Source: a virus
Taxonomy: Duplodnaviria > Heunggongvirae > Uroviricota > Caudoviricetes
Virus record (IMG/VR): IMGVR_UViG_2541047897_000006
Reading direction: 5' to 3' (one strand)
Length of the DNA: 9,974 nucleotides
Within the stretch, counting starts at the first letter, position 1; every line of letters starts with the position of its first letter. The notes beneath the pieces are model-generated. The model searched no databases. It saw only the letters and a program-made list of their open reading frames with translations, and was not told the DNA's origin. Below are positions 2,372 through 9,458 of this stretch, in pieces. The translations under genes and the position numbers were made by a program.

Positions 2372-3310
2372 ATGAATATTTCCGATATTCGCGCAGGACT
2401 GCGCACGCTTGTAGAAAATGAAGAAACCACCTTTAAACAAATTGCTCTTGAGAGCGGACTTTCTACCGGAACTATCAGTAGTTTTATCAATGATAAGTAC
2501 AACGGGGATAACGAGCGTGTTTCACAAATTCTGCAACGCTGGCTGGAAAAATATCATGCAGTTGCAGAACTACCTGAACCGCCCCGCTTTGTGGAAACGC
2601 AGACGGTAAAACAAATCTGGACAAGTATGCGTTTTGCCAGCCTGACTGAAAGTATTGCTGTTGTATGTGGCAATCCTGGTGTGGGCAAAACCGAAGCGGC
2701 CCGTGAATATCGCCGCACCAATAACAACGTCTGGATGATCACCATTACGCCATCCTGTGCCAGCGTTCTGGAATGTCTTACTGAACTGGCGTTTGAGCTG
2801 GGAATGAATGACGCACCACGCCGTAAAGGGCCACTCTCTCGCGCCCTGCGACGTCGCCTTGAAGGTACACAGGGGCTGGTTATCATCGACGAAGCTGATC
2901 ATCTTGGTGCCGAAGTTCTGGAAGAACTCCGCCTGTTACAGGAATCAACCCGCACTGGCCTTGTGCTGATGGGAAATCACCGGGTTTATTCAAATATGAC
3001 GGGGGGTAACAGAACGGTTGAATTTGCCCGTCTGTTTTCCCGTATTGCAAAGCGCACTGCAATTAATAAAACCAAAAAAGCCGATGTAAAAGCTATTGCG
3101 GATGCCTGGCAGATTAACGGCGAAAATGAACTGGAGTTATTACAGCAGATTGCGCAGAAACCAGGTGCGCTTCGCATTCTGAATCATTCACTTCGCCTTG
3201 CCGCCATGACGGCTCACGGTAAAGGTGAGCGTGTTAACGAAGATTATCTGCGTCAGGCTTTCCGTGAATTAGACCTGGACGTTGATATTTCAACGCTGCT
3301 GCGTAATTAA
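2372..3310 (+). CDS. B: Transposition ATPase / target-DNA activator B (MuB family, AAA+)
   Basis: 312-aa ORF, the same length as Mu B. Walker A motif GNPGVGKT and Walker B motif LVIIDEADHL are present. It lies directly downstream of A with a GAGG RBS. Confidence 0.95.
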   Translation: MNISDIRAGLRTLVENEETTFKQIALESGLSTGTISSFINDKYNGDNERVSQILQRWLEKYHAVAELPEPPRFVETQTVKQIWTSMRFASLTESIAVVCGNPGVGKTEAAREYRRTNNNVWMITITPSCASVLECLTELAFELGMNDAPRRKGPLSRALRRRLEGTQGLVIIDEADHLGAEVLEELRLLQESTRTGLVLMGNHRVYSNMTGGNRTVEFARLFSRIAKRTAINKTKKADVKAIADAWQINGENELELLQQIAQKPGALRILNHSLRLAAMTAHGKGERVNEDYLRQAFRELDLDVDISTLLRN

Positions 3311-3555: not shown

Positions 3556-3786
3556 ATGTGTATTAAAGCTGAAAAATATATTGAATGGGTTAAACACTGT
3601 CAGTGCCACGGGGTGCCGCTGACGACATATAAATGCCCCGGATGTGGTGAACAGATTATGACGCAATGCTCACCCGAAAAGGAAATTCGGGATTCCCTGA
3701 CATGTTGTCCGTGGTGCAGCGCGGTTTTCTTTAAGCAGGTAAAAGGCGCGAAGGTAAAAGCCAGCGCAGTTATTCAGAATCAATAA
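3556..3786 (+). CDS. Cys-rich small protein, putative zinc ribbon (function unknown)
   Basis: The ATG at 3556 is preceded by GGAGA and sits 2 nt after the upstream stop; the ORF track extends the frame to 3532 but the RBS favours 3556. The protein contains HCQCH, CPGCG and CCPWC, with CxxC pairs about 20 residues apart. Confidence 0.65.
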   Translation: MCIKAEKYIEWVKHCQCHGVPLTTYKCPGCGEQIMTQCSPEKEIRDSLTCCPWCSAVFFKQVKGAKVKASAVIQNQ

Positions 3787-4826: not shown

Positions 4827-5351
4827 ATGGCTAAACCAGCAAAACGTATCAAAAGTGCCGCAGCGGCTTATGTGCCACAAAACCGCGATGCGGTGATTAC
4901 CGATATTAAACGCATCGGGGATTTACAGCGCGAAGCATCACGTCTGGAAACGGAAATGAATGATGCCATCGCGGAAATTACGGAGAAATTTGCAGCCCGG
5001 ATTGCACCGATTAAAACCGATATTGAAACCCTTTCAAAAGGCGTTCAGGGATGGTGTGAAGCGAACCGCGACGAACTGACAAACGGCGGCAAAGTGAAGA
5101 CGGCGAATCTTGTCACCGGTGATGTATCGTGGCGGGTCCGTCCACCCTCAGTAAGTATTCGTGGTATGGATGCAGTGATGGAAACGCTGGAGCGTCTTGG
5201 CCTGCAACGCTTTATTCGCACGAAGCAGGAAATCAACAAGGAGGCGATTTTACTGGAACCAAAAGCCGTCGCAGGTGTTGCCGGAATTACGGTTAAATCA
5301 GGCATTGAAGATTTTTCTATTATTCCGTTTGAACAGGAAGCCGGTATTTAA
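4827..5351 (+). CDS. gam: Host-nuclease inhibitor Gam (Mu Gam, Ku-like DNA-end-binding protein)
   Basis: 174-aa ORF with an AGGAG RBS 9 nt upstream. The protein (MAKPAKRIKSAAAAYVPQNRDAVITDIKR...) matches phage Mu Gam as I recall it, in both length and sequence. Confidence 0.93.
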   Translation: MAKPAKRIKSAAAAYVPQNRDAVITDIKRIGDLQREASRLETEMNDAIAEITEKFAARIAPIKTDIETLSKGVQGWCEANRDELTNGGKVKTANLVTGDVSWRVRPPSVSIRGMDAVMETLERLGLQRFIRTKQEINKEAILLEPKAVAGVAGITVKSGIEDFSIIPFEQEAGI

Positions 5352-6000: not shown

Positions 6001-6531
6001 GTGATTGATGCAAAAGTTCTGAATGGTGTCAGCACATTATTACGGGCTTACGGGCGTCTGACCTGCGGGGTTCTGGCTGAAAAAATGCAGATGCCATCCT
6101 CCGCAATGGTGTACTTCCTGCGTGATGCGGTTGATGCCGGAATGCTGACTGAACTTAATGGTTTTTACGACGTACCGCGTCCCCGTACAGAGCAGCCTGT
6201 AAGACGAAACGCAACTGAGCAGCCTGCTGTTGATGATGCCGCGTGGTGTTCCTTCCGCCGCTCATTGCCCTGGCTAGAAGGCAATGCCATTCCGGCGCTG
6301 GCAAAAGAATTTGCAACAGGCGTACTGACCTGCGAGTCGGTTTACATCGTTGCGGAAGTGGATGACGAAATGTGCAAACAGGGAATGCCCCGTTTTGTGA
6401 TGGCTTATATCGATATCCGGCTGGGGCGTTTTATTTGTGGTTCCAGTAGCTGGAATATCACCGACCACGTCCTGCGCTATCTCATTCTTGATTTCTCAAC
6501 GGCTCCCGAAGCAGCACAGGAGGTGGCGTGA
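6001..6531 (+). CDS. Hypothetical early protein (176 aa), GTG start, possible N-terminal winged-helix
   Basis: GTG at 6001 is preceded by GGAGGA at 5988-5993 and is the only in-frame start near the 5' end. The N-terminal segment STLLRAYGRLTCGVLAEKMQMPSSAMVYFLRDAVDAGML resembles a winged-helix DNA-binding fold (weak inference). The stop overlaps the next start. Confidence 0.6.
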   Translation: MIDAKVLNGVSTLLRAYGRLTCGVLAEKMQMPSSAMVYFLRDAVDAGMLTELNGFYDVPRPRTEQPVRRNATEQPAVDDAAWCSFRRSLPWLEGNAIPALAKEFATGVLTCESVYIVAEVDDEMCKQGMPRFVMAYIDIRLGRFICGSSSWNITDHVLRYLILDFSTAPEAAQEVA

Positions 6532-7061
6532 TGTTTTTTAAAACGTCAAATCCCGCAGCACTGCTGGCGTGGGAGCAGTTTATGGCGGACTGCCTGAAAC
6601 TACGCGAAGAAGCCCGCCATCTTGATAAGGTTCTGGGTTGTGGTTGCCGGTCAGTATTCAGCACAGGTATTGGTGGGCGTTATTTTCATGGTGTGAACTT
6701 TCCGGGGAATGAGCGCCCTTTCTCGCGGGAGCTGTGGACCGTACAACGGCCCGCATCAGGTAACAGTTGCAGGCCCAGAACTTCGCGGATACCTGTTCAT
6801 CTCAGGGAGCAGGCAAAAGAGCTGGCGAAAATATGGCAGGAGAATATTCCGGTCACTTATGCCCGCACAGATGCTCTTTTACCCGCACTGGGACTGGATT
6901 TCAGCGCAACAATATTCGGACCTCTCCAGTGGTTCCGTGTTGGTGATGTGATTTACGTCATGACGGGGATGACACCCGCACAAGGCCGCATGACTGAAAT
7001 CCTTTCTGACGAATTTATCCGGGCGCAAAAACAGGCGGAGGTAAACAATGGAAAACAATGA
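6531..7061 (+). CDS. Hypothetical early protein (about 176 aa)
   Basis: AGGAGG RBS at 6518-6523. ATG 6531 shares a nucleotide with the upstream TGA stop (TGATG coupling); the ORF track starts one codon earlier at GTG 6528. I recognise no motif. Confidence 0.65.
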   Translation: MFFKTSNPAALLAWEQFMADCLKLREEARHLDKVLGCGCRSVFSTGIGGRYFHGVNFPGNERPFSRELWTVQRPASGNSCRPRTSRIPVHLREQAKELAKIWQENIPVTYARTDALLPALGLDFSATIFGPLQWFRVGDVIYVMTGMTPAQGRMTEILSDEFIRAQKQAEVNNGKQ

Positions 7062-7230
7062 AACATCGTATTCGTGGCTGGGGGTATTCACCACGGTGAA
7101 ACAGGAATGCCAGACCTGCGGTAATGAATCCCCTGAATATCTGAAAGAGTGCCCTCATTGTGGCGGGCAGAAATGCAACCACTGCGATATGGGCGATGAC
7201 ACGGCGTGCATGAATTGTGAAGGTGAATAA
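7048..7230 (+). CDS. Cys-rich mini-protein with four CxxC motifs (putative zinc ribbon)
   Basis: 60-aa ORF with a GGAGG RBS 7 nt upstream. It contains CQTC, CPHC, CNHC and CMNC. Its 5' end overlaps the upstream ORF by 14 nt in another frame. Confidence 0.6.
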   Translation: MENNETSYSWLGVFTTVKQECQTCGNESPEYLKECPHCGGQKCNHCDMGDDTACMNCEGE

Positions 7231-7231
7231 T

Positions 7232-7534
7232 ATGAATAATGAAACTAAATTTACTCCCCTTAATATTGATAACGTCATGGCTGAAAAAGGGATGCTGGAA
7301 CGTGTTCGCGCTATCGTTGAATATGGTATTAAGCATGAACTCACCGCCAGAGAAGTCCGTGACATTATCAACCGCGAAATGAATCGTCTGGAAACAGTAG
7401 TGGCACTGCAAAATGAAACAGCCCGCGAGGAGTACATCCGCCGCAGGCTGGGGTTATCAGACCAGGATATTGTTACTGACGCTCATGTGTTTGAGGCTTT
7501 TGAGATCCGTCAGCATCTGGGCCTTACGAACTGA
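7232..7534 (+). CDS. Hypothetical early protein (about 100 aa)
   Basis: ATG 7232 is preceded by GAAGGTGA with 5-nt spacing; the ORF track alternative is GTG 7217. It starts 1 nt after the upstream stop. I recognise no motif. Confidence 0.6.
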   Translation: MNNETKFTPLNIDNVMAEKGMLERVRAIVEYGIKHELTAREVRDIINREMNRLETVVALQNETAREEYIRRRLGLSDQDIVTDAHVFEAFEIRQHLGLTN

Positions 7535-7545
7535 TGTGTAAATTC

Positions 7546-7567
7546 AGGCGGTGTTGCAGCACCGCCT
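7546..7567 (+). promoter_or_regulatory. GC-rich hairpin in the 51-bp gap upstream of gemA (possible attenuator or RNA stability/processing element)
   Basis: AGGCGGTG-ttgcag-CACCGCCT forms an 8-bp stem with a 6-nt loop, followed by CTTTCC and then the gemA RBS GGAGGT. The T-tract is weak, so it is not a classic strong intrinsic terminator. Confidence 0.3.
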
Positions 7568-7585
7568 CTTTCCGGAGGTACGATC

Positions 7586-8137
7586 ATGAATCGCACATCC
7601 CTGATTAAATTAATCCATGTCGCCCGTCGGGAGCTACAACTCGACGACGACACTTACCGCGCTTTTCTGATGCAGAAAACGGGCAAAATCAGTTGCCGCG
7701 AGCTGACGGTTACGCAACTGGAACAGGTGCTCAATGCCATGAAAGAACGCGGCTTTAAGAAGCAGAATAAACACCCACGCCGTCGGTTTAAGGGGCATGT
7801 CACGCCCCGTGAGAAGGTGTATAAAATCTGGCAGCAGATGGCAGAAGACGGTTTTATTACCGATGGTGGTGATGTGGCGCTGGACAGATATGTTCAGCGC
7901 CTGACAGCGAAACGTAATGGCGGACAGGGTGTTTCCACGCTGGCGTGGTGCCACGGAGAATCGTTGCAGGTTGTGCTTGAAACACTCAAGCAGTGGCACA
8001 TCCGCTGTATTCGTGAAGCCTTTTCCCGTCACGGGCTTCCGTTGCCGGTCAGTCCGTCCGGGCGTGAACTGCGCGGCTATGATGCCATGACGGCGGCTTA
8101 TGCCCATGCCAGAAAGACACGGAGGATGGCACAATGA
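7586..8137 (+). CDS. gemA: GemA-like protein (Mu gp16 family)
   Basis: 183-aa ORF with a GGAGGT RBS. It lies immediately upstream of mor and overlaps it (ATGA), as gemA does in Mu. The call rests on position and size; I cannot search the sequence. Confidence 0.75.
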   Translation: MNRTSLIKLIHVARRELQLDDDTYRAFLMQKTGKISCRELTVTQLEQVLNAMKERGFKKQNKHPRRRFKGHVTPREKVYKIWQQMAEDGFITDGGDVALDRYVQRLTAKRNGGQGVSTLAWCHGESLQVVLETLKQWHIRCIREAFSRHGLPLPVSPSGRELRGYDAMTAAYAHARKTRRMAQ

Positions 8138-8523
8138 CGGAAGATTTATTTGGTGATTTGCAGGATGACACCATTCTGGCACATCTTGACAATCCCGCAG
8201 AGGATACGTCACGCTTTCCGGCACTGCTGGCGGAGCTGAACGATTTACTGCGCGGGGAATTGTCCCGGCTGGGTGTTGATCCTGCCCATTCACTGGAGAT
8301 TGTTGTGGCTATCTGTAAGCATCTGGGCGGTGGTCAGGTCTACATTCCACGCGGTCAGGTTCTGGACTCGCTGATTCGGGATTTGCGTATCTGGAATGAT
8401 TTTAACGGTCGCAACGTCAGCGAACTGACCACCCGTTATGGTGTCACTTTCAACACGGTTTACAAGGCTATTCGCCGGATGCGACGGCTGAAATACCGCC
8501 AGTACCAGCCCTCACTTCTGTAA
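8134..8523 (+). CDS. mor: Middle operon regulator Mor (transcription activator of Pm)
   Basis: 129-aa ORF with a GGAGGA RBS 7 nt upstream. The protein (MTEDLFGDLQDDTILAHLDNPAED...) matches Mu Mor as I recall it. Its C-terminal half is a paralogue of the C protein downstream: compare GGGQVYIPRG...IWNDFNGRNVSEL with GGRQFYIPCG...LYCQFNGRNMEEL. Confidence 0.9.
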   Translation: MTEDLFGDLQDDTILAHLDNPAEDTSRFPALLAELNDLLRGELSRLGVDPAHSLEIVVAICKHLGGGQVYIPRGQVLDSLIRDLRIWNDFNGRNVSELTTRYGVTFNTVYKAIRRMRRLKYRQYQPSLL

Positions 8524-8528
8524 ACAGT

Positions 8529-8553
8529 AAAGCCGGTTAATCCGGCTTTTTTT
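8529..8553 (+). terminator. Rho-independent terminator at the end of the early operon
   Basis: AAAGCCGG-ttaat-CCGGCTTT stem-loop followed by a run of seven T residues, 6 nt after the mor stop codon. Confidence 0.8.
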
Positions 8554-8559
8554 ACGTCC

Positions 8560-8640
8560 TCAATATCCTGTGATGAATAACCGTACCGGGGGAAATCATC
8601 ATGGGTAAAGGCTGGAATGCATCCTTTCATCTTGGCAGAC
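8560..8640 (+). promoter_or_regulatory. Probable middle promoter Pm with Mor-binding dyad (position approximate)
   Basis: An imperfect dyad, TGATGAATAA...N...AAATCATCA, spans about 8571-8601 just downstream of the early terminator. In Mu, Mor binds a dyad upstream of Pm, which drives C. I cannot place the -10 element or the +1 from sequence. Confidence 0.4.
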
Positions 8641-8941
8641 GTGAGCGGCTGTGTCAGGAGGTTTTGCACCGTGTCGCCGGTGGGCCACGGCCTGCGCCCC
8701 GCGACTATACCGGTCATGATGGCACCCACGGAAGTTATTACATGAAAGGATGGCAGTCGGTTGATATGCCGGAAATTCTTCACCACTGTCAACGTTATAA
8801 GGAAAAATATTGTGTACAGAAAATTCAGTGATGAATGTTTCGGGCCATTCGCGCTGCTCACCGCAATAAAAGTGATCGCCCTGGTGGTTCTGATAAGCAT
8901 CAGTGCCGTGGTGTCTTTCTGTCTGTTAACCGGGGGAAAAT

Positions 8942-9364
8942 ATGCAGCATGATTTATTTGAACACGATCCGGCAATTCGCCAGTTAATCGGGCATATTGA
9001 TAACATCCCGGCCCCGGAACTGGAATCACGCTGGCCCCGTTCGGTGGTTGATCTGATTGATGTTCTGGAAAACGAACTGAAACGCCAGAACGTCAGCAAT
9101 CCCCGTGAGCTTGCCCGTAAACAGGCCGTTGCCCTGTCCTGTTTTCTGGGCGGACGGCAGTTTTATATCCCCTGCGGCGATACTATCCTGACCGCGTTAC
9201 GCGACGATTTGCTTTACTGCCAGTTCAATGGTCGTAACATGGAAGAACTGCGTCGCCAGTACCGCCTGTCCCAGCCGCAGATCTACCAGATTATTGCCCG
9301 CCAGAGAAAGCTGCATACACGGCGTCATCAGCCTGATCTGTTCTCACCTGAAAGCCAGAAATAA
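8942..9364 (+). CDS. C: Late transcription activator C
   Basis: 140-aa ORF whose sequence (MQHDLFEHDPAIRQLIGHIDN...) matches Mu C as I recall it, and which is paralogous to Mor. It is followed by a hairpin terminator and then lys. Confidence 0.9.
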   Translation: MQHDLFEHDPAIRQLIGHIDNIPAPELESRWPRSVVDLIDVLENELKRQNVSNPRELARKQAVALSCFLGGRQFYIPCGDTILTALRDDLLYCQFNGRNMEELRRQYRLSQPQIYQIIARQRKLHTRRHQPDLFSPESQK

Positions 9365-9455: not shown

Positions 9456-9458
9456 ATG

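Follow-up and report, generated by a model that had tools for sequence, protein, structure and literature searches.

An orthologue of Mu gp13 as a member of an unnamed eight-cysteine acidic domain family of phage early-gene arrays

What role might a 60-residue protein with eight cysteines play in the early region of a transposable phage? The question is raised by an open reading frame (ORF) at positions 7048–7230 (plus strand, stop included) of a 9,974-nucleotide stretch of Caudoviricetes DNA, IMG/VR record IMGVR_UViG_2541047897_000006, which we refer to as the window. The ORF runs from ATG 7048 to TAA 7228–7230 and encodes a protein of 60 aa, 6.7 kDa and isoelectric point (pI) 4.4, MENNETSYSWLGVFTTVKQECQTCGNESPEYLKECPHCGGQKCNHCDMGDDTACMNCEGE. 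Its cysteines are arranged in four CxxC knuckles: CQTC (residues 21–24, nt 7108–7119), CPHC (residues 35–38, nt 7150–7161), CNHC (residues 43–46, nt 7174–7185) and CMNC (residues 54–57, nt 7207–7218). Sequence, length and position make the protein the orthologue of gp13 (formerly named E14) of bacteriophage Mu. Its core, as judged from profile searches, defines an unnamed eight-cysteine acidic domain family of phage early-gene arrays and other mobile elements in beta- and gammaproteobacteria. The explanation that we consider probable, with moderate confidence, is that this Mu gp13 orthologue is a selected gene for a metal-stabilised acidic protein-binding module.

The window is the left, or early, end of a transposable phage of the Mu type. 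Nucleotides 6400–7700 share 96.9% identity with Mu (AF083977) and 95% with SfMu, D108 and Yersinia Mu-like phages. Across all 60 residues the window protein is 93% identical to Mu gp13 (AAF01090.1), and PHROG 5584, filed under the category 'unknown function', matches residues 1–60 of 60 with E = 4.7e-42. Mu gp13 has the same length (60 aa), the same position between E13/gp12 and E15/gp14, and the same ribosome-binding site (RBS) and overlaps as the window ORF, and the synteny continues downstream of E15/gp14 into gemA and mor. The two proteins differ by four substitutions, one of which falls in the first knuckle, where codon 22 (7111–7113) specifies Gln in the window (CQTC) and Pro in Mu and almost all relatives (CPTC). 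The exact window protein already has an NCBI entry, as a hypothetical protein of E. coli. The Mu protein is annotated as 'hypothetical protein, previously called E14', the name E14 being used in the 1991 left-end record M64097, and its UniProt entry, GP13_BPMU, reads 'Uncharacterized protein gp13'. In Mu, gp13 lies within the early (Pe) transcription unit, in the 'semi-essential' early region. Functions of the Mu semi-essential (SE) early genes have been described as 'largely unknown' (PMC3820752), and our full-text literature searches turned up no work on gp13/E14, on its accessions or on the CDMGDD motif. A 'gp13' reported in a phage-trigger screen was considered as Mu gp13 and rejected, as it is T7 gp13.

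The ORF is a genuine protein-coding gene under strong purifying selection. When the 37-codon core is compared with that of a diverged Mu-like orthologue (locus L005), 20 of 111 nt differ, with 14.5 synonymous and 5.5 non-synonymous differences; the synonymous rate (dS) is saturated, the non-synonymous rate (dN) is 0.06, and their ratio (dN/dS) is 0.02. The core protein is still 90% identical although about one fifth of the nucleotides have changed, which, together with the sense-frame dN/dS, argues for selection acting on the sense frame in the gp13 part. Other comparisons with a defined ratio range from 0.02 to 0.66 (0.02–0.20 for diverged relatives), and values above 0.20 are confined to comparisons in which just 2–5 nt differ. 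Moreover, an open frame on either strand with at least four CxxC motifs within 44 aa appeared in 0 of 300 shuffles of the window, while the real window contains exactly one, the gp13 ORF.

Translation signals surround the ORF on both sides. A Shine-Dalgarno (SD) sequence, GGAGG (7037–7041, plus strand), lies inside the end of the upstream gene with a 6-nt spacer to ATG 7048, and Mu carries an annotated RBS at the equivalent position (7460–7465) ahead of gp13. The upstream neighbour, a gp12/E13-like ORF of 177 aa (6528–7061, plus strand; PHROG 2314, E = 4.9e-80), ends with TGA 7059–7061 and overlaps gp13 by 14 nt (7048–7061), gp13 being in the +1 frame. At the other end, a single base (7231) separates the gp13 stop from ATG 7232–7234 of the gp14/E15-like gene (7232–7534, plus strand, 100 aa; PHROG 6075, E = 4.5e-54). 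An SD-like AAGGTG for this gene (7220–7225, plus strand) is located within the last gp13 codons, and Mu annotates an RBS at 7644–7647 before gp14. The ORF list gives the downstream ORF an earlier in-frame GTG at 7217; in the current annotation of Mu (AF083977) the gene starts at the ATG that corresponds to 7232. An earlier sequence-only reading of the window had described the 60-aa ORF with its four motifs, the 14-nt overlap and the stop 1 nt before the next start, and the ORF list and the sequence bear all of this out. Such overlap geometry makes translational coupling of gp13 to its neighbours plausible, but coupling should not be required for its translation, because the ORF has a strong SD of its own.

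The conserved part of the protein, residues 19–60, follows the signature C-x2-CG-x(9-29)-CPxCG-x2-KC-x2-CDMGDD[V/T]-x-C-x2-C and ends in an acidic tail. In the window, the eight-cysteine core with its four knuckles occupies 7108–7218 (plus strand), with support from knuckle conservation, dN/dS and AlphaFold 2 (AF2) prediction; the DMGDD motif that marks the family lies between knuckles 3 and 4 at 7186–7200, and the tail, EGE, at 7219–7227. About 200 relatives were found, and nearly always the domain either stands alone, in proteins of 45–70 aa, or is a module at the C-terminus of a larger protein. When 1.84 billion cluster representatives were searched with a profile, 167 matched at E ≤ 1e-3. 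A second profile search, of 5.8 billion clusters, returned 310. No cluster among them has a functional name, although an incidental JGI label, Elf1, is attached to one, and just two have a precomputed Pfam entry, in both cases a generic zinc-ribbon or DUF. Knuckles were counted in 209 proteins that have knuckles 3 and 4 plus a D-x-G motif, and charge and position were assessed in 167 proteins with the stricter full signature. All four knuckles are intact in 199 of the 209; the loop that joins knuckles 1 and 2 is 9 to 29 residues long, and the remaining spacings are fixed. Most of the 167 signature proteins contain DMGDD[VT], and D47 and G49 are conserved at 90% or more in A3. The domain is C-terminal, with at most 12 residues past the last Cys, in 156 of the 167 members. 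The domain is consistently acidic: the core averages −4.3 and the tail −3.1, each being negative in 96% of the 167 members, and the window protein itself has 11 D+E against 3 K+R.

In contrast to this core, the N-terminal 18 residues (7048–7101) are variable and are predicted with a local confidence score (predicted local distance difference test, pLDDT) of only ~60. They are dispensable, because homologues of 46 and 47 aa begin just before the first Cys and fusion proteins of 231–234 aa are homologous to gp13 only from about codon 7. The functional part of gp13 is the C-terminal ~40 residues. Close homologues are few, forming 11 clusters at 90% identity that come from E. coli, Salmonella, and metagenome or sequencing-run assemblies, and a search of phage collections added homologues from Shigella and Yersinia phages. 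A homologue in a lytic Klebsiella phage has only 47% identity and still has all eight Cys. A degenerate DNA pattern for KCxxCDMGDD was found in just 15 species-representative genomes, all of them beta- or gammaproteobacteria, which fits a gene borne on mobile elements. Among the longer relatives, P0206 and P0207 have an extra zinc ribbon, and P0026 has an N-terminal region of ~110 aa with a sub-threshold match to Phage_ProQ_C_like (26.6 bits against a cutoff of 27). This N-terminal subfamily is shared by P0042, which has no Pfam match, and by P0069 and P0070, which were grouped by eye; the N-terminus of P0051 looks helix-turn-helix (HTH)-like, likewise by eye.

No family covering the eight-cysteine domain was found in Pfam, NCBIfam, PADLOC or the PDB. 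PDB profiles align mostly with the first ribbon: the RadA zinc finger at E = 0.007 with the A2 profile, and LysW, bL32 and rubrerythrin at ~0.04–0.2. Classic zinc ribbons, rubredoxin-like knuckles and the RadA/Sms N-terminal zinc finger align with gp13 residues 20–39 (CxxCG-x10-CPxCG), but they have no counterpart to its second half, KCxxCDMGDDxxCxxC, and, unlike these families, the gp13 domain has an acidic character and carries no attached enzyme. Kinship with the gyrase inhibitor YacG (E ~0.2) or with the RadA zinc finger was dropped, since only the generic first ribbon aligns. Structure prediction by AF2 was unusable with 10 close homologues (pLDDT 48); with 69 diverse core sequences it reached a pLDDT of 78.5 overall and ~90 for residues 21–50, predicting just two short strands, 32–34 and 41–43, around knuckle 2. 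In Foldseek searches PHD, FYVE, GATA and RING topped the lists, none significantly (E ≥ 0.3, template modelling score ≤ 0.52). The knuckle spacing of the gp13 domain, Cx2C-x(9-29)-Cx2C-x4-Cx2C-x7-Cx2C, fits the cross-brace pattern of PHD, FYVE and RING domains, which we treat as a lead and not as a test; these are eukaryotic and giant-virus families, and their conserved residues differ from those of gp13. The core is thus predicted with confidence but shows no recognisable fold class; it would be a zinc-ribbon-like unit in tandem or else a two-metal unit with cross-braced knuckles (1+3 and 2+4), and we infer that the eight cysteines bind metal.

On this basis we propose that the mini-domain is folded by one or two metal ions, most likely zinc, bound to its eight cysteines. 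The first two knuckles take the rubredoxin/zinc-ribbon form, CxxCG...CPxCGxxK. Rather than contacting nucleic acid, the domain would act as a rigid, negatively charged protein-binding module, since core and tail are acidic in nearly all members. As an inhibitor or adaptor it could dock, early in infection, onto a basic protein of the host or the phage, perhaps one that binds DNA, and in the fused versions it could tether the N-terminal domain to the target.

Several observations weigh against this proposal. The Pfam families that match, Zn_ribbon_LapB, DnaJ_CXXCXGXG, DZR and Zn_Ribbon_1, cover only residues ~10–42, and all score below their gathering thresholds; for the three zinc-ribbon families the scores are 19.0 against 25.7, 13.7 against 27.3 and 12.6 against 25 bits. 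The first knuckle is broken in 10 of the 209 relatives (nine keep knuckles 2–4 and one only 3–4), and one such variant, P0244 with a C21S change, occurs on 35 contigs in E. coli and Salmonella prophages, so that knuckle 1 appears to be the least constrained of the four. HVO_2753, the only well-studied mini-protein that has four C(P)XCG knuckles, binds one zinc ion and not two, and AlphaFold mispredicted its empty site (PMC11241148). A scan of about 10 distinct non-Mu contexts revealed no conserved partner, with neighbours mostly lacking a Pfam match. Finally, the domain is known here from sequence and predicted structure, and the preference for protein over nucleic acid as its ligand is drawn from charge.

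The sequence-only reading, which did not recognise the ORF as Mu gp13/E14, had called its arrangement of knuckles textbook zinc binding; the small cysteine-rich protein stands and 'zinc-ribbon' is a reasonable, if provisional, label, but 'textbook' sits poorly with the sub-threshold zinc-ribbon scores and with the single zinc of HVO_2753. It had also singled out conservation of the cysteine pattern in relatives as a check, and the 199 of 209 intact proteins and the eight cysteines of the Klebsiella phage homologue agree with it, with the caveat that knuckle 1 is the least constrained. Its view that gp13 is unrelated to the other cysteine mini-protein of the window holds as well. That protein (3556–3786, plus strand, PHROG 3786; extended to TTG 3532 in the ORF list) has 76 aa and a single CPGC...CPWC ribbon, is basic (pI 8.6, against 4.4 for gp13), and gives weak, below-threshold matches to FmdB-type and ECs_2282-type zinc ribbons. 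A fold shared with gp13 was rejected, as BLASTP gives E = 0.028 over a 19-aa CPxCG stretch and hhalign a probability of 14.5% over 9 columns. What finds no support is the suggestion that two such proteins in one operon are unusual and reflect repeated acquisition. In Mu, D108, SfMu and Yersinia Mu-like phages the gene occupies the same position, followed by a gp14 homologue, and so it is no recent addition in the window; Mu also encodes the small Cys4 protein Com, and many unrelated phages have gp13 family members in their densely packed arrays of early genes.

As a feature of the window, then, gp13 is ordinary, having been annotated as hypothetical since 1991. What is new is a well-defined, unnamed acidic domain family with eight cysteines, of which Mu gp13 is a tractable member. 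For most semi-essential early genes of Mu, a model phage, no function has been assigned (PMC3820752, PMC4553209). Our results show that gp13 is not a Mu-specific filler ORF but represents a domain that recurs, standalone and fused, in early regions of unrelated phages. It offers a concrete and cheap functional target in E. coli, and its signature can be used to annotate hundreds of 'hypothetical' mini-proteins. If it is indeed an inhibitor of a host protein, it would represent a new fold among small phage effectors; otherwise it would be one more small zinc-ribbon-like protein.

A bolder version of the proposal, which we regard as speculative and on balance unlikely, makes the 'CDMGDD' domain a widely exchanged counter-defence or host-takeover module. 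Here it would be a rigid, metal-knotted, highly acidic plug resembling a DNA mimic and inhibiting a basic host protein that handles DNA (for example a nuclease, or a factor in restriction, repair or the nucleoid), and phages would deploy the plug alone or fused to other effector domains. If so, Mu gp13 would be its experimentally tractable founding member. Searches of PADLOC gave no significant match to a known defence or anti-defence family, the best E-value being 0.054, and the Lar family TIGR03655 scored 14.7 bits, its cutoff being 39.6.

Beyond the Mu-like phages, the gene is found in tightly packed arrays of small early genes, some of them accessory. In a lytic Klebsiella phage (Kpn BU9) the homologue adjoins a DUF2800/PD-(D/E)XK exonuclease and a gp2.5-like single-stranded DNA-binding protein; in one uncultured phage it lies between DnaB and a Rad52/5'-3' exonuclease/NinG module; in lambdoid prophages it directly precedes an Rv2179c-like exonuclease and the integrase. 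On three other uncultured-phage contigs it sits within arrays of mostly unannotated genes, and a Thauera genomic island with a homologue also carries RdgC, DUF3268 and DUF1173. The recurring nearness to nuclease and recombination genes is suggestive only. The recognisable neighbours in the non-Mu scan were just the DUF2800/PD-(D/E)XK exonuclease of Kpn BU9 and the Rv2179c-like exonuclease of the lambdoid prophages. Since the non-Mu neighbours are not conserved and are mostly unannotated, guilt by association yields no target.

It is also possible, though we doubt it, that gp13 works only as a detachable C-terminal domain or obligate partner of the protein encoded in the gp12 slot or of gp14, with the overlaps providing stoichiometric co-translation. 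In most loci the gene overlaps each of its two neighbours at start and stop. Downstream of gp13, the Mu-like phages compared have a gp14 homologue or an ORF like it: the homologue is shown in L005 and visible in the neighbour sequence of L049, and the other Mu-like loci have an ORF of ~100 aa in the gp14 slot. The pairing of gp13 with gp14 is thus kept in these contexts while the upstream gene changes. Natural fusions point the same way. A different upstream protein, of 174 aa, is joined in frame to gp13 in P0241, P0248, P0254 and phrog_6418, from E. coli Mu-like prophages (IMG/VR loci L027 and L029–L031), and these fusions are not a sequencing error, because several sequence variants occur on several contigs. 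The C-terminal placement of the domain in the wider family (156 of 167) is likewise what such a partnership would predict. However, the upstream slot is not conserved, being filled by gp12 in the window, by a 110-aa protein in a Stx1-phage-associated Mu-like element and by the fused 174-aa protein in other E. coli prophages. In Yersinia phage vB_YpM_23 (L004, 963–1692) gp12 is missing altogether, and a gp11 homologue overlaps gp13 by the same 14 nt. This gp11 homologue carries the last ~10 residues of gp12 (…EQAEANNGKQ), which places a junction of recombination immediately upstream of the gp13 SD. The majority of family members stand alone, gp14 homologues were absent from the non-Mu contexts examined, and gp13 has its own strong SD. 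A PDB sequence search of gp12 and gp14 gave no significant match, and gp14 has no Pfam or PDB relative, its only matches being weak and non-significant ones to pesticin and TPR-like repeats. A two-gene unit of this kind is compatible with a metal-stabilised protein-binding module and does not exclude it.

A nucleic-acid-binding regulator seems unlikely. Under this explanation gp13 would be a translational activator like Com, or a protein of the archaeal aS21/DUF1610 type, with the knuckles presenting an RNA or DNA surface. Mu already uses Com, of 62 aa and Cys4, as a translational activator (PMC6483171); but Com has a single ribbon, and a fold shared with gp13 was rejected at an hhalign probability of 1.2%. 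The only solved proteins that align across all eight Cys are archaeal, namely HVO_2753 and chains that their depositors describe as 'Zn-ribbon RNA-binding protein involved in translation', and their E-values are non-significant (9o17_AZ, 0.06; 6sw9_C, 0.44; 6ydh_A, 0.83). Proteins of this DUF1610/HVO_2753 type (6ydh, 6sw9_C, 9o17_AZ) resemble gp13 in having ~60 aa and four CxxC knuckles at similar spacing. They differ in that gp13 has no PF07754 match at E ≤ 1 and only its knuckles 1 and 2 are CxxCG, knuckles 3 and 4 not being C(P)XCG as in HVO_2753. They also differ in pI, 4.4 for gp13 versus 6.7 for HVO_2753 (PMC10716476), and in location, the gp13 family being found on bacterial mobile elements and the archaeal type on chromosomes. 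The ProQ-like N-terminus of the P0026 subgroup and the HTH-like one of P0051 would suit a regulator. Against this stands the charge of the domain, which is negative even before metal-bound thiolates are counted, with K42 as the sole conserved basic residue.

A redox or iron protein, with rubredoxin-like Fe(Cys)4 centres or a DnaJ-like zinc/thiol-disulfide chaperone module, is quite improbable. Knuckles 1 and 2 of gp13 resemble the rubredoxin consensus, CxxCG...CPxCGxxK, which we again take as a lead and not as a test; the rubredoxin linker is far longer than the 10-residue linker of gp13, and this counts against the resemblance. The best Pfam matches are Zn_ribbon_LapB, 'rubredoxin metal binding domain' (E = 0.0011, 19 against 25.7 bits), and DnaJ_CXXCXGXG (E = 0.0021, 18.7 against 32.7 bits), both well under their gathering thresholds. 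The repeat of the DnaJ central cysteine-rich domain (PF00684), CxxCxGxG, is absent from all four knuckles (CQTCGNES, CPHCGGQK, CNHCDMGD and CMNCEGE). Several haloarchaeal C(P)XCG mini-proteins do bind a metal other than zinc (PMC11241148), but the gene contexts give no hint of redox chemistry.

The weakest alternative, that the ORF and its cysteines arose by chance or as a by-product of overlapping or antisense coding, is effectively refuted: a 140-aa minus-strand ORF (7015–7437) does cover gp13 and gp14, but the sense-frame substitution pattern in the gp13 part and the shuffles speak against it, and hundreds of relatives keep the sense-frame cysteines in unrelated genomic contexts. A comparable antisense ORF is open in L005 (142 aa, 48% identity, about the same as for sense gp14), and inside the stretch of the 7015–7437 ORF the Mu record of 1991 gives a shorter antisense ORF, E-82, as 'putative'.

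The remaining genes of the window are those of a Mu-like early end. Among the named genes the Pfam scan covered the Gp11_C-domain protein (6001–6531) and gemA (7586–8137; GemA, E = 1.5e-31). The other names are presumptive, being assigned from protein length, Mu gene order (AF083977) and recognition by eye: ner (1–237), A (240–2333), B (2372–3310), gam (4827–5351), mor (8134–8523), C (8942–9364) and lys (starting at 9456). The gap between gp14 and gemA is 51 nt (7534–7586), ~224 nt fewer than in Mu (AF083977 7957–8233), and the Mu stretch that is absent holds ORF Mu_54 (7960–8127) and an annotated 'semi-early promoter' (8151–8217). The interval from mor to C is ~420 nt (8523–8942), and lys directly follows C; the Mu annotation places E18, E19 and gp20 right after mor, the Mu stretch compared ending before C. 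Since the gene content after mor differs from that of Mu, the middle region is differently organised in the window. A minus-strand ORF of 189 aa (8460–9029) spans the gap between mor and C.

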